Virus genome (UHGV): UHGV-0128589 | Direction: 5' to 3' (one strand) | From: a virus | Length of the DNA: 11,077 bases | In this document: positions 1,064-10,872 of the stretch, piece after piece | Numbering within the stretch: the stretch's first letter is position 1 | How the letters are laid out: each line of letters opens with the position of its first letter | Notes under the pieces: generated by a model | What the model was told of the DNA's origin: nothing | Seen by the model: only the letters and a program-made list of their open reading frames with translations | Database searches by the model: none | Program-made: the position numbers and the translations under genes

Positions 1064-3397
1064 TTATTTCGCTGTGGGGTCATCGCACTTCGGCAGCCAG
1101 TCGGCGTTGCTTTCTTCCCTGAGCGCAAGATTGGTCTGTATGCCCTGATTTTTACGGCGCTTCTCATAACTCAGTCCGTACTCTTTTAGCATCGCTGGCA
1201 GTCCCTTGCCGAACATGGTGAGGCTAAGAGTATTCTTGTAGCCGTGGGCCTCCATGTACGCCAGGTAGGCATGATAGAGGTAAAGTCGCGGCTGACGCGG
1301 AATGATGTTGGCATTGCCAATATACATACCCTCAGGTTCCGGCAGCGCCTCCAGATAGCCACAAAAATCAAATGTCGGGTCGGCGTCGCGCTTGATGCTG
1401 AGCGCCTCGTCGGAATTCTGCTGTGACTGGAGCAGTGTGCGCGCGGTCATCGGGTCGCTGAACTTCTGCATTAGCTGGCGCACAATGACGGCCAGCTCGC
1501 GGGCGATTTTGTTCTTAAGCTGCGGGTCGCGTTCTTCCGGGGCAATCTGCTCCGGGAAATGCAGAATCACCCGGCGACGGGAAACACCGCCGCTGCGGTC
1601 AGTAAAGCGCATCGGGTTATTGTTCACGGCCAGAATCACCGCCGGAATATGGGTGGAGTACGCATCCTTGTATTTCGGGTCTACCGATACCGCATCCCCG
1701 CCGGTGATGGCCTTGAGTCCGGCTCCGTCACCACTCCATTTTTCCTGGTCAGGCAGTCGAATCAGCGAGAAGCCAATCAGTGCGGCACGTTCACGCGGTG
1801 ATTCCAGCGTTTCGATGGTGGCCGACGTGGCGTTATCTTCCCCGGCAAGCATGGTCGCAATTTCGGCCAGAATACTTTTCCCGCTGCCGCCGGGCCCGGT
1901 CACCTCAAGAAAGAGCTGCCAGTCGTAGCGGTTCGCCAGCACCATAAACAGCGCGGCCAGAATCACATCGCGTTTTTCTGGTCTGCCACCGGCAGCACGG
2001 TCGAGCCAGCGCCAGAAATCCGGTGCATGGGTTTCCAGCGTTTCGCCCTCCACCGGCGGGGTAAAATCGACATCACAGAGTGTGCGCAGCCAGTGCGATT
2101 TATCATGCGGGTTGAATGTGCCGGTGGCGGTATCAAGTACGCCGTTGCGAAAGCCAATCAGACGCCGTGCCGGGGCGTCCTGCTGCGGAATAATCAGTTT
2201 CAGGGTCTCCACCACCGAGGCAATTTTTCCCGACGAGAACGGTGCGCGCAGACGCTGGAACAACCCGGCCACGTCGCGGGCAAAGTCCGACGGCGGAATG
2301 ATTTTCCATATCCCGGCCTCATAACGGGACAGGAGCTGGCCGTTCGCGTCCACGGCCAGCGCTTCGCCGTAATGCTCATGCACCCGCATCGCTTTTTCAC
2401 TGGTGCTCATGGCGGTAAATTCCGCCTCGCTCATGGTAGTGAAAGGACTGTCAGCCGGTGGCCGGATGGCCTCATAAATGGCTTTCCGCATCGCCTCCTC
2501 ACCTTTCTGTTCAAATGCGTCATTCCAGTCACCGAACACCGGCGGCAGGGCAACAATACCGTCACAGGCTTCTGCGGCCGCTGCGGCTTTACTCTGGCCG
2601 TCGCCGTTCAGGTCGCGGTCGGCGGCGAGGACAATCTGACAGGCCGGGTATTTCTGACGGGCAAGGCTCGCCAGAGAAAGGAGGTTTGCGGACGACAGTG
2701 CCACCATGACGGTTTCCCCGGTCAGGTGATGTACGGTGAGCGCGGTCGCATAGCCCTCCGCTATCCACAGCCGTTTTCCCGCCTGTTTTTTCCCTTCGAT
2801 GGTGTGGCACGCTCCTTTTACCGCCCCGCCTTTCAGGGTGCGTTTGAGACCCTCAGAATTGATGAGCTGAAGGTTAACCAGTGCATCGGTATTGTCATAC
2901 AGCGGGACAACCACATCACCGGCGCGGAACGTCACGCCGCCGGTTTTATGCACGGCCGTGAGCGTCAGACATTCCAGAGCGGGGAAGCCCTTGCGGGTCA
3001 GGTAGGCGTTGCCGCTGGCCGTGCGGGTTTTCTCCATCAGTCTGACGGCCAGCGTGGCCGCCGCTTTACGGTCTGCTTCGGTTTCAGCCTCTGCGGCCAC
3101 AATCACCTCCGGGGCAACCGGCGACAGGTTACCGGCGACGACATTCACCTTTTGGGCTGCCTCTGACGGATTAACGCCGAACACCTTTTCAACCAGTTTC
3201 AGGCCATCCCCTGCGCCGCACTGGTTACAGAACCACGTCCCGCGACCCTCTTTATCGTCAAACCGGAAACGGTCAGAACCGCCGCACACCGGGCAGGGCT
3301 GATGCCGGTTTTTAATGACCTTCACCCCCAGCGCCGGGAGAATGCGCGGCCAGTGGCCGCACGCCTGTTTTACGGTTTCCGTTACGTTCATTTTCAT
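1064..3397 (-). CDS. alpha: P4-type alpha protein: DNA primase / SF3 replicative helicase
   Basis: 777-aa ORF; N-terminal CxxC...CxxC zinc-binding primase region (CPVCGGSDRF...FCNQCGAG); Walker A P-loop GPGGSGKS in the C-terminal half; RBS GGGAGAA upstream; flanked by iterons, as for P4 alpha. Confidence 0.95.
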   Translation of the reverse strand: MKMNVTETVKQACGHWPRILPALGVKVIKNRHQPCPVCGGSDRFRFDDKEGRGTWFCNQCGAGDGLKLVEKVFGVNPSEAAQKVNVVAGNLSPVAPEVIVAAEAETEADRKAAATLAVRLMEKTRTASGNAYLTRKGFPALECLTLTAVHKTGGVTFRAGDVVVPLYDNTDALVNLQLINSEGLKRTLKGGAVKGACHTIEGKKQAGKRLWIAEGYATALTVHHLTGETVMVALSSANLLSLASLARQKYPACQIVLAADRDLNGDGQSKAAAAAEACDGIVALPPVFGDWNDAFEQKGEEAMRKAIYEAIRPPADSPFTTMSEAEFTAMSTSEKAMRVHEHYGEALAVDANGQLLSRYEAGIWKIIPPSDFARDVAGLFQRLRAPFSSGKIASVVETLKLIIPQQDAPARRLIGFRNGVLDTATGTFNPHDKSHWLRTLCDVDFTPPVEGETLETHAPDFWRWLDRAAGGRPEKRDVILAALFMVLANRYDWQLFLEVTGPGGSGKSILAEIATMLAGEDNATSATIETLESPRERAALIGFSLIRLPDQEKWSGDGAGLKAITGGDAVSVDPKYKDAYSTHIPAVILAVNNNPMRFTDRSGGVSRRRVILHFPEQIAPEERDPQLKNKIARELAVIVRQLMQKFSDPMTARTLLQSQQNSDEALSIKRDADPTFDFCGYLEALPEPEGMYIGNANIIPRQPRLYLYHAYLAYMEAHGYKNTLSLTMFGKGLPAMLKEYGLSYEKRRKNQGIQTNLALREESNADWLPKCDDPTAK

Positions 3398-3411: not shown

Positions 3412-3732
3412 TCAGTGCACAACAGGCGATTGCATGTGACGGGCGCAGAGTTCATCCATCACCGCAAGCCCGAGAAAGGACAGTGACGGCGCGGCTTTCA
3501 GTGGCCCGCCTTCCATTAAATCTTCCAGCAGGGCACAGGCAATCAGGCGGCCTTTTTCCTCGCCGTACTGGCGCAGATAGAAGCCTTCCAGTCCGGCAGC
3601 AATGGCGCTTTCCAGTGCATCAAGGGTGAGATGTGGATAGCGGTGCTGACGTTCGCACAGGGTCAGCCAGGCACAGGCCACGGCGCGACGATACAGCGCA
3701 GCACGCAGAACAGGGGATAATGAATTTTTCAT
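3412..3732 (-). CDS. small protein directly upstream of alpha; position matches P4 cnr (copy-number regulator), identity not established
   Basis: 106-aa ORF; its stop is 14 nt before the alpha start; its start overlaps the stop of the upstream ORF (ATGA), so likely co-transcribed. Confidence 0.65.
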
Positions 3733-3956
3733 ACATTGCCCTCCCCGGTCAGCCAGCGCTGATTGCAGCGTTCGACCACGCCGTCGAGCTGGGCGGTCAT
3801 GAGGTAAATCACGGAGGTAAGCTGTAACTGCTGCGCCGGGTCACGACGAATAGTGGCGCAGTCCTGCACCTGCATCAGTTCGCCGACGAGCTGGCCGACA
3901 TTGCGCATATGCTCCAGGCATTCGAGGTCACGGGCGGTAATGGTGGTGTGTCTCAT
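3729..3956 (-). CDS. hypothetical small protein of the left (replication) operon
   Basis: 75-aa ORF overlapping both neighbours by 4 nt (translational coupling); no recognisable motif. Confidence 0.55.
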
Positions 3957-4147
3957 GCGCGCACCTCCGCAACCGGCAGACGGCCAGCGAACGAGAGGAC
4001 GTAATCACGAACGAGGGAAAGGCGTGCGGCGTGTTCATCACCGGCAACGGTGCGGAGCATACAAATACGGGGTTTACGGTCTGCGCGACGTACAGCGGCA
4101 AACACAAAAACAAACTGCGGGTGTGACGGGGTGAGGGTCGTAGCCAT
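3953..4147 (-). CDS. Icd-like small protein (cell-division-inhibitor / P4 kil-position gene); the longer 183-aa ORF in the track is probably an artefact
   Basis: Internal start [16 protein letters not shown]... at 4147 with SD GGAGGT about 8 nt upstream (alternative ATG at 4171); N-terminus resembles proteins annotated Icd-like in P4-like prophages (from memory, unverified). Confidence 0.55.
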
Positions 4148-4350
4148 AGTGGCAACCTCCAATGTTTGCATGTGACTGCTACCACTGGAAACGCCAATTT
4201 CACTGGTGGTAGCCCAGACGGGGTTGGCGTAACCGGCAACATTGGAAACCGGCGCTTCGTGAGAAGCCCCCGCCTGAGCCACCATTACTCGAAGGATCCA
4301 AAGGTAGATAAATCTCTGGATCAAAAATGGATGCACTGAGGCATAGACAC

Positions 4351-4372
4351 AAAAAAAGACGCAAGGCGCGTC
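4351..4372 (-). terminator. candidate intrinsic terminator/attenuator inside the leader between the AlpA-like gene and the Icd-like gene
   Basis: On the minus strand GACGC-GCCTT-GCGTC (5-bp GC stem) immediately followed by TTTTTTT. Confidence 0.4.
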
Positions 4373-4500
4373 CGGTGTCGCCAATGTTGTAAACGGGACG
4401 CCAATCCCGGCTGCCGATTTTGCGACAGCGGGAAAACTATACCTGGAAACGGCAAACGGAAGCAAGCCAGAAAAAGGGACTTTTTGCTGAGCGGCCATCA

Positions 4501-4767
4501 TCATGCGTCATAACTCCGGTTGCGTTCGGCAATGCGATCCGCCATCCATGCGGTGATTTCAGACTGTGCCCACGCCACGTTTTTTCCGCCGAGGGAGATT
4601 TGTTTCGGGAATGCCTCGCGGCTGATGAGGTCGTAAATGGTCGACCGGGACAGGCCGCATAAATGCATCACTTCGGGCAGACGGATAAAGCGCTCCTGAA
4701 CGACATCAGAGACCGGCATCAGCGGGGCGGCAGGGGCAGAAGACGGGGAAGAAAAAGCGGTGTGCAT
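4501..4767 (-). CDS. AlpA/Vis-family helix-turn-helix regulator / excisionase
   Basis: 88-aa ORF with typical AlpA core [46 protein letters not shown]; SD GAGGT 7 nt upstream of the ATG at 4767; internal start at MPVSD also possible. Confidence 0.85.
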
Positions 4768-5034
4768 CGGGCTACCTCATAAAGTCCATACAGTGCCGGT
4801 CGTGTCCGTCCGGCTTCGGGTAGCTCTCTATTTTGTGAATATTTTTACTCAGGGCAACAAGTCATTTTGTAGTGGCTTACCATACAACAGATTGATTTTT
4901 AAACAATGGCAAACGCTGGCAAACAGATGCAAATCACTGCATTACATTGCAGCAACTTTTATTTCTTTTACTTATATATTTTTCTTTATCAATCGAAAAA
5001 AAGTCTAAGTGATATCGTCAGTGCAAAAAACAGA

Positions 5035-5140
5035 GGGTGAACAGTAGTGAACAGTCAGTGAACAGTTACACCCTCAACTGTTCACCCTTTATCTTACTGT
5101 ATTAATTATCTTTTTCTTTTTAGTGAACAGTAGTGAATAG
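5035..5140. repeat. second iteron cluster of GTGAACAG/CTGTTCACC repeats (P4 ori/crr-type)
   Basis: gtgaacag at 5037-5044, 5047-5054, 5058-5065 and 5123-5130; ctgttcaccc at 5078-5087; gtgaatag at 5133-5140; about 4.1 kb from the cluster at 921-1012. Confidence 0.65.
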
Positions 5141-5215
5141 TTATAAGTAAAAAACAAACAGTGAGTAAGGTTTTCCTGAGACCTTTCTCTGGCCAGCCGG
5201 GTTTTAAGGTCTGTT

Positions 5216-5233
5216 TGTGCCATTTTTGCCACA
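5216..5233 (+). promoter_or_regulatory. TGT-N12-ACA activator site of a P2/P4-type late promoter (Psid-like)
   Basis: tgt-gccatttttgcc-aca with exact 12-nt spacer, centred about 80 bp upstream of the sid start codon. Confidence 0.6.
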
Positions 5234-5305
5234 ACGGCAATGAATCGTGTTGTTGTGTCTGGCGCGGCAGAATCTCTTCAGATTGAAACGAAGAGGAGAC
5301 CCGAC

Positions 5306-6043
5306 ATGACTCAGACCGCTGTTATTCCCGACTATCTTAAACCCGCAATGGAACACCTTGAAACTGCCCGGTCAGCGCATCTTGCCAATGCCAGTCGAAT
5401 GGATGAAACCACGGCTGCCATCAGCCAGGTAAAAGCACAAAAAAATGAACTGGAGCAGGAAAATGGCAATGATTCCGGTGCATGGCGCACCGCCTTTCGT
5501 GCCGGTGGTGCTGTGATTACTGACGAGCTGAAACAACGCCATATAGCGCGTGTAGCACGGCGTGAACTGGTACAGGAATGTGACAGCATGACAGAGGTAT
5601 TGTCTTTTGAGCTGGACAACCTAAAGGGAGCCTGTGACAGCACGGCCAGAGCGTACCGCCAGGCACATCACGGCGTCCTCAGCCAGTATGCAAAGCATGA
5701 GCTCGATGTTGCCCTGCGTGAAACCTGTGGTGCTCTCGTCAGGGCAATGAAACTTAACATACTGGTTCTGAATAACCCTCTTGCCAATACCATCGGCCAT
5801 CAGGGATATACCGAACCGGAAAAGGCTGTGATGCAGCAGGTTAAAGCGTGGCTTGAACAGGCAGTGAAGGGCTGCAACATCCGCCTGACCGATGAGCCGG
5901 TGCTGTTTAAAACAGGACTGTCGGCCTCCACGCTGCCTCATATGGAGTATGACGTTGCGGCCACGCCCGGCCAGCGTCAGGTGTGGTTCGAGAAAATGAA
6001 CAAACGTGAGTCTGACCTTAAGGCCCGGGGGTTACTGTCATGA
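5306..6043 (+). CDS. sid: Sid-like capsid size determination (external scaffold) protein
   Basis: 245-aa product from the internal ATG at 5306 with SD GAGGAG upstream; first gene of a sid-delta-psu arrangement; the ORF-track start at 5240 has no RBS. Confidence 0.8.
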   Translation: MTQTAVIPDYLKPAMEHLETARSAHLANASRMDETTAAISQVKAQKNELEQENGNDSGAWRTAFRAGGAVITDELKQRHIARVARRELVQECDSMTEVLSFELDNLKGACDSTARAYRQAHHGVLSQYAKHELDVALRETCGALVRAMKLNILVLNNPLANTIGHQGYTEPEKAVMQQVKAWLEQAVKGCNIRLTDEPVLFKTGLSASTLPHMEYDVAATPGQRQVWFEKMNKRESDLKARGLLS

Positions 6044-6301: not shown

Positions 6302-6868
6302 GTGACCACCCTGACATTACAGCAGGCGTTTGAAGCCTGTCAGACGAACAAAACGGCGTGGCTGAATCGTAAAGCCGAACTGGCCTCCGCAGAGCAGGAA
6401 TATCAGGAATTATTACTGGATGACAACGCACCGGGTTCCCGCAGATTACAGATGCTACGTGACCTTATCGACGTAAAAAAATGGGAAGTTAATCAGGCCG
6501 CCGGTCGCTATATCTTCTCGCATGAGGAGGTACAGCGCATCAGCATCCGTAACCGTGTGCATGATTTTATGCAGCAGAACGGCGCAGAACTGGCCGCTGC
6601 ACTGGCCCCTGAGCTGATGGGGATTAAAAACCAGCCCGCGATGATAAAAAACCGTGCGCTTGACCGTTCAGTCACTTACCTGAGAGAAGCTCTTTCCGTC
6701 TGGCTGACCGCAGGAAATGAAATTAATTATTCGGCACAGGATAACGACATTTTAACGGCCATCGGATACAGGCCTGACGCGCCCTCGCGGGATGATTATC
6801 GTGAAAAATTCACCCCTGCACAGAACATGATTTACACCCGTCGACGCGCCGAACTGGCCGCGCAGTAG
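6302..6868 (+). CDS. psu: Psu-like polarity suppression / capsid decoration protein
   Basis: 188-aa ORF with GTG start and SD AGGAG upstream; N-terminus TLTLQQAFEACQTNKTAWLNRKAELASAEQEY resembles P4 Psu as I recall it; third gene after sid and delta. Confidence 0.8.
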   Translation: MTTLTLQQAFEACQTNKTAWLNRKAELASAEQEYQELLLDDNAPGSRRLQMLRDLIDVKKWEVNQAAGRYIFSHEEVQRISIRNRVHDFMQQNGAELAAALAPELMGIKNQPAMIKNRALDRSVTYLREALSVWLTAGNEINYSAQDNDILTAIGYRPDAPSRDDYREKFTPAQNMIYTRRRAELAAQ

Positions 6869-7034: not shown

Positions 7035-7065
7035 GCGGGCAGGCGGGGCGGGGAGAGCATTGCGC
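7035..7065. other. candidate cos / packaging region
   Basis: GC-rich tract gggcaggcggggcggggagagcat loosely resembling the P2/P4 cohesive-end sequence as recalled; located between psu and the accessory genes, where cos lies in a permuted P4 prophage. Not an exact match. Confidence 0.25.
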
Positions 7066-7238: not shown

Positions 7239-7619
7239 ATGCTAAATCATATTTATGGAATTGTTGGTATAGTTGGCACATTAGTTACGATTGTGACGAG
7301 TTACATCAGAAATCAAGAATTGTCGCAATGGTTCCTTGTATGTTCTGGTTGGCTTACGGCTCTATTGATAGGTTGGTTCACGCATAGAACTATTAAAATT
7401 CTAAGCAAAGATCACAAAGAAACCATCATTAGTAATGATGGTATAAAGCAAACGCTTATAGAGCGGAATGAAACATTAACCACACAACTTACGCATGCAT
7501 TAGAACAGAAAGAAAAAATGGAAGGAATCGCGGCTTATTTAGCAACTCAGAACCCACAAATTAACGCCATGCCTAGAGCCATCGCGCGACAAGAAAATAC
7601 TGAGCTAGGAGGTAATTAA
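7239..7619 (+). CDS. small two-transmembrane-helix protein with C-terminal charged/helical tail; first gene of the accessory operon
   Basis: 126-aa ORF; hydrophobic segments IYGIVGIVGTLVTIVTSYI and WFLVCSGWLTALLIGWF; RBS AAGAGAG 7 nt upstream; AT-rich codon usage unlike the core genes. Confidence 0.7.
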   Translation: MLNHIYGIVGIVGTLVTIVTSYIRNQELSQWFLVCSGWLTALLIGWFTHRTIKILSKDHKETIISNDGIKQTLIERNETLTTQLTHALEQKEKMEGIAAYLATQNPQINAMPRAIARQENTELGGN

Positions 7620-7620
7620 G

Positions 7621-8685
7621 ATGAAAGTAAATTTTGATAGTTATTCATATTATCCTGCATTAAGAACTCGTGCAGCTGAAATACTTGGCTTGAGTAAGCT
7701 TGCTCATGATAAGAAAGAGAAAGTACTTCCACTTATAACCTTAGGGAAATGGCCCCGCTCAGATGAAATTCAAGTTTCTCTTGATAAGAGTCTGGAAGCA
7801 ATGAATAACTTGCCTTTTATTCTGGACGTTACTCAAGAGAACAAGCATCATTGCGCATCAAGCTTTGATCTTCTATCTTCCGAAAATAATTTTTCAAACT
7901 GGATAGCTTTCTGCTCTAAGAATGAGAATATTATCCCCGTAGTTCAAATGCCTGAATCTGCAAGATTAAGGGATATAGTACAGCAAGCAAGAATACTTGA
8001 AGAAAATAAAGGTTCCATTGCATTTCGCATAAAGAACCTTAACACTGATATAAATAAAACAATAGCATCACTTGTGTCTCTCGACTCCCCTGAAAATGCG
8101 GTTATATTCATAGACTTGGGTTACATTCGCGGACATGTCTCAGCAATGACGTCTGCTGCCATAAGTGCAATCAACCAAATAAGGACAGAAATTCCTGAAG
8201 CTATAATTAGTGTACTGTCGACTAGTTTCCCAAGTTCGGTCGCAAACTTTGCAGGAGAAAATGGTCAATCTGGTTATATTGACATTATGGAAAGAGAATT
8301 CCACCAAACTATTGGTGGTCGAGGAGTATCTATATACGGAGATCATAGTTCAATTCACTCTGTTGTATATGATGATGTTGGTGGACGTTATGTCCCAAGA
8401 ATTGACATTGCATTAGATGATGCTTGGTTTTTTGAGAGAAGACCAGGACTTGATAGTAAAGGCTATATAGAAGCAGCAAGAGCGATTCTTAAAAGATACC
8501 CTAATTATCTTGAAGAAGAATCCTGGGGTGCGCTGATGATTAAAAACGCTGCATCAGGCGATATTGCTGGTATGGGGAGTCCCGCTAAATGGATTTCTGT
8601 GCGCGTGAACCTTCATATAACAAAGCAAATTGAGCTATCAGAAGCACTTAAAACAGATTACGATCCTGAAGAGGATTTCTTCTAA
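7621..8685 (+). CDS. uncharacterised 354-aa protein, second gene of the accessory operon; function unknown
   Basis: Long ORF starting 1 nt after the upstream stop; strong SD AGGAGGT 9 nt upstream, embedded in the last codons of the upstream gene; no Walker or other catalytic motif recognisable by eye. Confidence 0.8.
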   Translation: MKVNFDSYSYYPALRTRAAEILGLSKLAHDKKEKVLPLITLGKWPRSDEIQVSLDKSLEAMNNLPFILDVTQENKHHCASSFDLLSSENNFSNWIAFCSKNENIIPVVQMPESARLRDIVQQARILEENKGSIAFRIKNLNTDINKTIASLVSLDSPENAVIFIDLGYIRGHVSAMTSAAISAINQIRTEIPEAIISVLSTSFPSSVANFAGENGQSGYIDIMEREFHQTIGGRGVSIYGDHSSIHSVVYDDVGGRYVPRIDIALDDAWFFERRPGLDSKGYIEAARAILKRYPNYLEEESWGALMIKNAASGDIAGMGSPAKWISVRVNLHITKQIELSEALKTDYDPEEDFF

Positions 8686-8710
8686 AAAATAAGGGAGGGC
8701 AGCCTCCCTT
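8683..8710 (-). terminator. terminator hairpin between the convergent accessory genes (strongest for the minus-strand gene)
   Basis: aagggagg-gcag-cctccctt perfect 8-bp stem; on the minus strand it is followed by ATTTTTT. Confidence 0.55.
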
Positions 8711-9503
8711 ATCGCACGACCCTTTTCAAAACTTTGATGGGAGTGATACTCCCAACCTCTCCGTGCTTTCTCATAAACCCCTCAATATCAACTGTATAAA
8801 AATCATCTAATTTTTCATCAGTATTATCTTCGAAATCTTTAAAGTGATTATGTTCCCGTCTCTTTTTTGATTTACTTAACAAAGTCAAATCGTTAGCATT
8901 CGATAATTCGCTACCTGCTAATTTCTTCAAGTAATCATCAGAAGTTTCTTTATAGCGTTGCTTAATTGCTTTAAGCGCAAAGTCTCTAATTCTAGATAGG
9001 GGAATTTGTTCAGCTATACGCTCTAAAGCCTCACGACCAGACTCGAGTAAAAACTTTTTCCCATTTTCAACAAGAAGTAATTGCAACTCTTTTTTCAGTA
9101 AGAAATTAATATAAACCTTCTTATTACCGAGTACTGCCGTACGCCCACGCTGAACTATTTTAAAACGAATGCCTTTACTAGTATTTATGTATTCAATAAC
9201 ACCAACATCTGATGTTACTTTCTTCGCAATTTCATAAGTAAATTTTGGGGCACAAACAACAGTTACCTTTTCAAAACGAGATGTAAAGGTTTCTAACTGA
9301 CCATCTAATCTTTTAAGAGAGTCAAAATCACTTTTTATTTCAAAAGCTTGCAAGTGTCCATTCGCAACGGCCAGATCAGCGCGGCGACTCCAATTCGCTA
9401 CAACCATTTCATTAATAATGGTTGCGTTCTCTAACAAGCCTTTTTTAAAAAGCCAGTCAATAAATGCGACTTTTACATCTTGCTCTCTTAATAAAAATGA
9501 CAT
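8709..9503 (-). CDS. stand-alone protein with N-terminal PD-(D/E)xK nuclease-like domain and charged helical C-terminal region
   Basis: 264-aa ORF; motif order E7 ... RADLAV (D42) ... AFEIKSD (E54-x-K56) fits the PD-(D/E)xK core; own extended -10 promoter and own terminator; very AT-rich. Confidence 0.8.
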   Translation of the reverse strand: MSFLLREQDVKVAFIDWLFKKGLLENATIINEMVVANWSRRADLAVANGHLQAFEIKSDFDSLKRLDGQLETFTSRFEKVTVVCAPKFTYEIAKKVTSDVGVIEYINTSKGIRFKIVQRGRTAVLGNKKVYINFLLKKELQLLLVENGKKFLLESGREALERIAEQIPLSRIRDFALKAIKQRYKETSDDYLKKLAGSELSNANDLTLLSKSKKRREHNHFKDFEDNTDEKLDDFYTVDIEGFMRKHGEVGSITPIKVLKRVVR

Positions 9504-9529
9504 AATCTCGTCACACCCTTAAAAATTGT

Positions 9530-9545
9530 TAAAAATTATAGCAAA
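9530..9545 (-). promoter_or_regulatory. candidate extended -10 promoter (TGcTATAAT) for the 8709..9503 gene
   Basis: Minus strand reads ttgcTATAATtttt in the 91-bp gap between the int stop and the downstream gene start. Confidence 0.4.
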
Positions 9546-9594
9546 AAAAACAAACTCCATCCATTATTCCTCTTGAGTTTTTTTTGATAAAGAG

Positions 9595-10872
9595 CTAGAT
9601 GTCATTTATTTTACTCCCACAGTCATACGGTGATATATACTCCTTATTATTTAGATCTAAATAATCAGCCCACCACTGAACCATTTTGCGCCTTTCATCT
9701 AAATGTTCTGATGTATGAATATAAGCAGCCCTAACGCCATTACGTTCTGTGTGACTCAACTGACGTTCTATAGCGTCATCGCTCCATAATCCTGACTCAC
9801 CCAGCGCACCACGGGCCATCGTTCTAAATCCATGCCCGCAAACTTCAGTTTTCGTGTCATAGCCCATCGCACGCAATGCGCTGTTTACCGTGTTTTCACT
9901 CATAACCTTAGTTGCGTCATGATCCCCCGGGAACAGCAGCTCTTTATCACCACTAATTTGCTTGAGCTGCTCTAATAAAACCATCGCCTGCCGACTGAGA
10001 GGAACAATATGCTCCTCTTTCATTTTCATGCCACGATACGAGTAACGCACGCCCTTAATTTCTTCTCGCTTTGCAGGTATACGCCAAAGAGATTTATCGA
10101 AGTCGAACTCATCCCAACGCGCGAAACGCAACTCACTGGAACGCACAAAAGTTAGTAAGGAAAGCTCAACCGCGATCCGTGTCATTACACGGCCACGATA
10201 TGCAGCAAGACGTGCAAGAAACTCAGGGAACCGGCTAGAGGGTAAAGCGGGGTAATGTCGCGCTTTGGTTGTCGATAGCGCACCGGCCATATCACTGGCT
10301 GGATTTGAGTCGATGTAATCGTTCTGTACTGCATAACGCATGATAGCCGTGACACGCTGCTGAAGACGCTGTGCGACGTCATGCTTACCACTTGCATCAA
10401 CTTTTTTAATCGGGGCTAACAGGTGGCTAGTCTTGAGCTGGCGAATGTCGGACGAACCAATATGAGGGAAGATATAAAGCTCAAGATAGCGAAGAACGCG
10501 CGATCGATGGTCTTCACTCCAGCGCTTGTTACTGGCGTGCCATTCACGAGCAATGGTTTCGAAAGTATATGCCCCCGAATTCTCGGCCTGAGCTTCTTTC
10601 TGTTCGGCTTTTGGGTCAATGCCCTGCACTAGCAGCTTTTTAGCTTCATCGCGCTTTGCTCTTGCCTGAGCAAGCGTCACAGTAGGCCAAACACCAAAAG
10701 CGAGGCGATCCTCTTTTTTGTCTGAGGGGCGTCTGTATTTCATGCGCCAGTATTTAGAACCCTTAGCCGAAATCTCGAGATACAAACCGCCGCCATCGGC
10801 CATTTTGTAGGTTTTTTCTTTTGGCTTTGCGGTCTCGACCTGTCTGGCGTTGAGCTTCATTTGGGGGCACAT
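9595..10872 (-). CDS. int: P4-type tyrosine integrase / site-specific recombinase
   Basis: 425-aa ORF; N-terminus with the ...KTYKMADGGGLYLEI... motif typical of P4-family integrases; C-terminal HGFRTMARG and downstream tyrosine (VRAAYIH); about 150 bp from the tRNA 3-prime end. Start may be the ATG at 10860 (MKLNARQ). Confidence 0.95.
   Translation of the reverse strand: MCPQMKLNARQVETAKPKEKTYKMADGGGLYLEISAKGSKYWRMKYRRPSDKKEDRLAFGVWPTVTLAQARAKRDEAKKLLVQGIDPKAEQKEAQAENSGAYTFETIAREWHASNKRWSEDHRSRVLRYLELYIFPHIGSSDIRQLKTSHLLAPIKKVDASGKHDVAQRLQQRVTAIMRYAVQNDYIDSNPASDMAGALSTTKARHYPALPSSRFPEFLARLAAYRGRVMTRIAVELSLLTFVRSSELRFARWDEFDFDKSLWRIPAKREEIKGVRYSYRGMKMKEEHIVPLSRQAMVLLEQLKQISGDKELLFPGDHDATKVMSENTVNSALRAMGYDTKTEVCGHGFRTMARGALGESGLWSDDAIERQLSHTERNGVRAAYIHTSEHLDERRKMVQWWADYLDLNNKEYISPYDCGSKINDI

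Follow-up and report, generated by a model that had tools for sequence, protein, structure and literature searches.

A large proportion of Enterobacterales genomes contain P4-like satellites (PMC8628076). For late promoters of the P2/P4 type, the consensus TGT-N12-ACA, the dependence on the activator Ogr and the CX2CX22CX4C motif of the activators have been described (PMC3931495). Ogr also trans-activates the P4 genes delta, psu and sid (PMC7552001), and three activators, i.e., the single-domain Delta of phiR73, Pag of PSP3 and Ogr of P2, all activated the P2 promoter PF in reporter circuits (bioRxiv 10.1101/2022.11.09.515794).

The Ogr-activated late promoters of P2 (PP/PO, PV and PF) have a TGT left half-site and no -35 element, and they drive structural genes of the helper rather than piracy genes. 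According to the P2 RefSeq record, about 55-58 bp separate the centre of an annotated activator site from the annotated late start. An exact TGT-N12-ACA is not found at any of these annotated sites in the P2 reference genome; the sites at 3063-3080, 10243-10260 and 17561-17578 read TGT-N12-CCA, TGT-N12-CAA and TGT-N12-CCA, respectively. In this they are partial dyads, whereas the sites of the satellites are better palindromes.

In P4, the dyad TGTGTCAGGGCTGGCACA is found upstream of sid, at 9493-9510 of the sequence (X51522 / NC_001609). This dyad of the sid promoter (Psid) is reportedly the classical target of Delta and Ogr (Van Bokkelen et al. 1991; Julien & Calendar 1995). Both P4 records contain no annotated promoters or transcription starts, and the "-10 consensus" feature of X02534, an early prediction made from the sequence only, was left out of the analysis. 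Here, we compare these systems with a stretch of 11,077 nt from the virus genome UHGV-0128589, which we refer to as the window.

Results

Gene content of the window

The window is a P4-like satellite prophage. Following the definition of the P4-like family in PMC8628076, we found the core set int, psu, delta, sid, alpA and alpha, together with the epsilon/ash region, in the order known from P4 (Table 1). All of these core genes are full length, and all have Pfam matches except Sid, which was identified through its homology to P4 Sid. The best annotated relative is P4 itself; its sid-delta-psu genes and intergenic region are about 72% identical to those of the window at the DNA level. Among E. 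coli genomes, the closest share about 89% identity across about 70% of the window, so the satellite is related to theirs but different from them. The antisense RNA of the C4/CI type and the isrK / c4-a1b1 elements constitute a P4-type RNA immunity system. Both lie within the Phage_ASH open reading frame, whose annotation may be partly an artefact of these RNA genes.

Table 1 Features of the window and the grounds on which they were assigned
Feature	Positions	Strand	Basis or remarks
alpha primase-helicase	1064-3397	-	
DUF5375 gene	3412-3732	-	
183-aa ORF matching Phage_ASH	3953-4504	-	Pfam
C4/CI-type antisense RNA	4202-4289	-	Rfam, 78.5 bits; within the Phage_ASH ORF
isrK / c4-a1b1 target elements	4352-4442	-	Rfam; within the Phage_ASH ORF
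vis/alpA-like gene, 88 aa	4501-4767	-	Pfam Phage_AlpA, E 3e-20; length and position as P4 ORF88
CAAAAT, putative -10 of a leftward PLL-like promoter that would drive vis	4830-4835	-	Sequence conservation
TGT-N13-ACA dyad TGTAGTGGCTTACCATACA upstream of vis	4868-4886	.	Located as the activator site of P4 PLL
Six alpha-type ori iterons GTGAACAG / CTGTTCAC	5037-5141		Correspond to the alpha-binding iterons of P4 ("ori type 1")
Predicted Ogr/Delta site (distal activator dyad), TGTGCCA-TTTT-TGCCACA	5216-5233	.	Exact match and P4 alignment
Conserved block TCGTGTTGTTGT at about -35 to -24	5245-5256	+	Column conservation 0.83-1.0
Degenerate counterpart of the P4 promoter-proximal (about -18) Delta site, TGT-N12-AGA	5254-5271	.	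Aligns with P4 TGTCCGGTGTACGTCACA
Predicted -10 hexamer CAGAAT (P4: CACAAT)	5268-5273	+	C, A, A, A and T invariant in 72 sequences
Predicted transcription start, A 7 nt after the -10	5280	+	99% conserved; would give a 26-nt leader
sid ribosome-binding site GAGGAG	5293-5298		
sid, 245 aa, capsid size-determining scaffold	5306-6043	+	65% identical to P4 Sid; 114 homologues found
delta, 81 aa, single Ogr-like zinc finger C4-X2-C7-X22-C30-X4-C35	6040-6285	+	Pfam Ogr_Delta PF04606, E 5.4e-21
psu, 188 aa, polarity suppression and capsid decoration	6302-6868	+	Pfam Psu PF07455, E 2.7e-89
cos-like sequence GGCGGGGCGGGGAGAGCAT	7042-7060		Shortly after psu, at the place of the P4 cos
gop (126 aa), beta (354 aa) and cII (264 aa, minus strand)	7239-9503		PADLOC, E 6e-73, 3e-188 and 2e-116
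Tyrosine integrase (int)	9595-10872	-	

The three genes downstream of the dyad at 5216-5233 are indeed sid, delta and psu, as the earlier note had assigned them; the homology to P4 Sid and the matches to PF04606 and PF07455 agree on this. They are tightly packed, the start of delta overlapping the stop of sid (ATGA) and a gap of 16 nt preceding psu. The Delta of the window contains the zinc-binding motif CX2CX22CX4C and belongs to the same Pfam family (Ogr_Delta) as the late activators of P2. It is a single-domain protein of 81 aa, in contrast to the 166-aa P4 Delta, which is a tandem duplication. It shares 50% identity with P2 Ogr, and 33% and 31% with the two halves of P4 Delta.

An in-frame ATG at 5240 would open a longer sid reading frame of 267 aa. 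This start was rejected in favour of the ATG at 5306, which has a ribosome-binding site and matches the N-terminus of the homologues. The ATG at 5240 also lies upstream of the predicted transcription start. Since the equivalent ATG in P4 opens an ORF of only 13 codons that ends in TAA, the extension is very probably not translated.

The sid promoter region and its counterpart in P4

An exact TGT-N12-ACA, TGTGCCATTTTTGCCACA, is present upstream of sid exactly where the earlier note had placed it, with TGT at 5216-5218, the 12-bp spacer at 5219-5230 and ACA at 5231-5233. The exact motif occurs twice in the window, the other copy (5601-5618) lying within sid, and shuffled sequences gave an expectation of 2.10 ± 1.40, i.e., the count is at chance level. 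Because the bare motif is no more frequent than this, any meaning of the dyad must rest on its context, that is, on its position and conservation.

Pairwise alignment of window positions 5140-5320 with P4 positions 9416-9597 gave 81% identity (183 columns). The TGT and ACA of the window fell on those of the P4 Psid dyad, the two dyads lining up column for column. In both elements the dyad lies between ori and sid, has arms of the form TGTGyCA and TGsCACA and is followed by sid-delta-psu, and its centre precedes the sid ATG by 81.5 nt and the -10 hexamer by 43.5 nt; the spacer and one base in each arm differ. We therefore take the dyad, from its alignment, to be the counterpart of the Ogr/Delta activator site of the P4 sid promoter and as such an ordinary part of the satellite.

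The distance to the -10 hexamer allowed us to place the dyad relative to the putative start. If the hexamer is taken as -12 to -7, the predicted start is A5280, and the dyad would be centred at about -55.5 because its centre is 43.5 nt from the conserved hexamer. This predicted distance is similar to those of the annotated late promoters of P2. The -35 position (5245-5250) reads TCGTGT, which shares only two of six bases with TTGACA, so that a -35 hexamer is lacking, and no sigma-70-like promoter was detected on the plus strand between vis and sid (4700-5306). Both results fit a promoter that depends on an activator.

Conservation of the dyad among related satellites

To assess conservation, we collected relatives from an alignment of 21 Sid proteins, which led to at least 15 genomic loci and 80 loci on viral contigs. 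The usable set comprised 96 loci, including the window and the P4 records, and these contained 72 distinct sequences of 200 nt upstream of sid plus 30 nt of sid. Sid proteins of the sampled loci were 61-90% identical to that of the window, and the named hosts include Kluyvera, Enterobacter, Scandinavium, Citrobacter, Atlantibacter, Klebsiella and Raoultella.

An exact TGT-N12-ACA was present at all 96 loci, centred 76.5-82.5 nt before the sid ATG. TGT, ACA and the 12-bp spacer length were kept in 72 of 72 distinct upstream sequences, which contained 19 variants of the dyad differing in the spacer. All six triplet positions were invariant, compared to 29.5% of the upstream columns in the same 72 sequences; the corresponding hypergeometric probability is 5e-4, a rough value, as the columns are not independent. 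The four central bases of the spacer were only about 50% conserved. Conservation was mirror-symmetric, with TGTGyCA on the left and TGsCACA on the right, and the variable arm position was mirrored on both sides, as would be expected for a site bound by a symmetric dimer. The distance from the dyad centre to the first base of the -10 was 43.5 nt in 71 of the 72 sequences, and the remaining sequence merely has an additional motif upstream. The distance from the hexamer to the ATG varied from 27 to 33 nt, all of this length variation being confined to the leader. As a control, we followed the chance motif at 5601-5618 inside sid: of 83 distinct sid genes, only 25 retained it. Shared ancestry may explain part of the conservation, since the sampled relatives are phylogenetically related, but selection on the dyad is favoured because the centre of the spacer and the flanks do vary.

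From these data, we consider it very likely that the region upstream of sid is a late promoter homologous to Psid, with the dyad at 5216-5233 as its upstream activator site. The reading as a late-promoter activator site, already proposed in the earlier note, thus gains support from the orthology to P4 Psid, the conservation and the fixed spacing to the -10. The site is apparently intact in this satellite, and it is reasonable to expect that the sid-delta-psu operon is still responsive to a helper. No helper prophage is visible within the 11,077 nt of the window.

A narrower interpretation, which seems unlikely to us, is that the site serves only the Delta of the satellite itself, the Ogr proteins of the helpers actually met not recognising it, and that the operon is not directly helper-responsive. 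The flanks of the half-sites would agree with this, as the full ACA of the satellite differs from the TGT-N12-CCA and TGT-N12-CAA of the P2 sites, and so would the divergence of the activators, given the 50% identity between the window Delta and P2 Ogr. However, Ogr trans-activates delta, psu and sid of P4; Ogr, Pag and phiR73 Delta cross-activate one and the same promoter; P4 Delta is more distant from P2 Ogr than the window Delta; and the TGT/ACA core has stayed frozen although the clades must depend on different helpers.

We regard it as still less probable, and in fact very improbable, that the dyad arose by chance or is a decayed, functionless relic in a cryptic element. The motif is as frequent in the window as chance would predict, and many genomic P4-like elements are degraded, according to the survey in PMC8628076. 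Neither point accounts for a dyad that is invariant in 72 of 72 sequences and held at a fixed distance from the -10 while its neighbours and the spacer centre vary, for the loss of the control motif inside sid in most relatives, or for the full-length core genes of this element.

It is hardly credible either that the dyad serves a CRP/FNR-type host factor (TGTG...CACA) or belongs to the alpha-bound replication origin: the outer TGTG and CACA resemble CRP half-sites and the annotated P4 ori feature spans the corresponding region, but TGTGA-N6-TCACA has no match at up to two mismatches in 5200-5240, the dyad pentamers are 8 bp apart, -55.5 is not known as a standard centre for CRP sites, and the alpha-binding iterons (GTGAACAG / TGTTCACC), which are arranged between vis and sid as in the P4 ori, stop at 5141 and do not occur in the dyad. 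Both readings of 5216-5233 were rejected on these grounds.

The promoter-proximal site and the form of Delta

P4 Psid has a second exact dyad, TGTCCGGTGTACGTCACA, which is reportedly the Delta site at about -18 (Julien & Calendar 1995), and Delta reportedly leaves footprints at both -55 and -18 of this promoter. The two-site architecture of P4 proper is not present in the window, where an exact second TGT-N12-ACA overlapping the -10 is lacking. The right half of the proximal element overlaps the -10 hexamer, and the second dyad of P4 is reduced to TGT-N12-AGA in the window because the -10 is CAGAAT rather than CACAAT. The left half (TGT at 5254-5256) was invariant in the collected sequences, whereas the right half was AGA in all 51 sequences with a single delta and ACA only in the 21 sequences with a duplicated delta, i.e., the P4 clade.

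The number of exact dyads upstream of sid followed the form of Delta. All 32 loci coding for a Delta of 162-166 aa (tandem duplication) had two exact dyads, and all 61 loci coding for a Delta of 67-87 aa (single domain) had one. The right half of the proximal element was ACA at the former 32 loci and AGA at the latter 61. In three further loci, delta could not be called; each of them had one exact dyad. The loci with duplicated Delta form one closely related clade, and therefore the proximal site and the duplication of Delta probably represent a single evolutionary event rather than an independent replication. As the proximal site is imperfect in the window (AGA for ACA), regulation of the sid promoter may differ in strength from that of P4 Psid. 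A further observation is that TGT 5254-5256 and the block TCGTGTTGTTGT are kept in all clades, including those without the full proximal site.

The vis-side element

The earlier note had also described a second, imperfect element with a 13-bp spacer upstream of the AlpA-like gene, at 4867-4885. This TGT-N13-ACA exists, although its position is off by one base and should read 4868-4886. Three TGT-N13-ACA motifs were found in the window, and 2.46 were expected, again the chance level. At its late leftward promoter PLL, upstream of vis/orf88, P4 has the dyad TGTTCAGGCTGTCTTACA, which aligns with the element of the window but has the 12-bp spacer. The position of the dyad relative to vis and the CAAAAT block is shared by both: the hexamer lies within a block, AAAATATTCACAAAATAGAGAGCTACCCGAAGCCGGACGGAC, that is kept across all clades, and the dyad is centred 42 nt upstream of CAAAAT in the window and 42.5 nt in P4.

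The vis-side dyad is less constant than that of sid. In the P4 clade (21 distinct sequences), 20 had N12 and one had no dyad; none had N13, N11 only or a replaced region. Among the 43 distinct sequences of single-delta relatives, N12 was found once, N13 in 17, N11 only in one and no dyad in 17, and the region was replaced in seven. Most sequences with N13 can also be read as N11. The promoter-proximal ACA was often mutated in the relatives (ATA, GCA, AAA or ACG), and the distal TGTGTGG was retained. It is thus plausible, but weakly supported, that the element at 4868-4886 is an activator site.

A 13-bp spacer in late promoters of the Ogr family has been proposed for the Ralstonia P2-like phages phiRSA1 and phiRSY1, with the motif TGTTGT-N13-ACAACA (PMC5694545). 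That motif comes from phages of another genus, has longer half-sites than the element in the window and was predicted from sequence only; it does not show that N13 is accepted by Ogr or Delta of enterobacteria.

Beyond the vis-side dyad, both the window and P4 have an array of repeats with a 10-bp period, of the TGGCAAAC type in the window and of the CTTAAAG type in P4. In the window, the array consists of three direct repeats (TGGCAAAC, TGGCAAAC and ATGCAAAT) spaced at exactly 10 bp and located at 4907-4934, about 21 bp beyond the N13 dyad. The same place is occupied in P4 by the "ori type 2 repeats" (three copies of CACTTAAAG), which resemble Cox boxes. The units at this position are specific to the clade of the satellite: besides TGGCAAAC and CTTAAAG, we found CTGGAAGG, TTGGCCnTTA and TGGCAAT/TGACAAT in related satellites. 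Repeats of this type may be sites for a Cox-type protein of the helper or for Vis, with clade-specific recognition.

Discussion

The known picture of Ogr- and Delta-dependent promoters is unchanged by these results, which are small refinements of it. The comparative survey adds the modest point that none of the sampled satellite clades departs from the dyad or from its distance to the -10. If the dyad is the activator site, then the piracy operon sid-delta-psu would have kept the regulatory site needed for its switch-on by the late activator of a P2-like helper, which is of use for annotation and for predicting the mobilisation of the element along with its gop-beta-cII defence cargo.

In P2 and P4, activation of this type is known to work through the alpha subunit of RNA polymerase. 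At the promoter homologous to Psid, a dimeric zinc-finger activator of the Ogr family, either Ogr supplied by a P2-like helper or the 81-aa Delta of the satellite itself, would bind the mirror half-sites TGTGyCA and TGsCACA centred at about -55.5 and recruit RNA polymerase to a promoter that has the -10 CAGAAT but no -35. Transcription from near A5280 would then yield the sid-delta-psu message. Delta would reinforce its own operon and the late genes of the helper, Sid would direct the formation of small capsids, and Psu would stabilise the capsids and inhibit Rho. For the site in the window, we infer binding, activation, the exact start and the effective activators from comparison with P4 and P2.

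A more speculative idea, which we put forward with considerable reserve, is that a single late sensor is universal among the satellites whereas their early sensors evolve clade by clade, the helper-sensing module diversifying and the promoter architecture tracking the form of the activator. It is based on three findings: the distal dyad of Psid is frozen in every clade; a full second site, which differs by a single C/G change (CACAAT vs CAGAAT), is present only together with a tandem-duplicated Delta; and the vis-side dyad is relaxed or shifted (N13, N11 or none). The clade-specific repeats with a 10-bp period that flank the vis-side promoter may be matched to different Cox-type proteins of the helpers.

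Two observations concern the region downstream of the operon. The cargo of the variable region between cos and int, gop-beta-cII, is the same as that of P4 itself. The cos-like sequence GGCGGGGCGGGGAGAGCAT differs from the cohesive-end sequence of P2, GGCGAGGCGGGGAAAGCAC, at three of 19 positions, which may mean that the cos specificity of the helper is slightly different.
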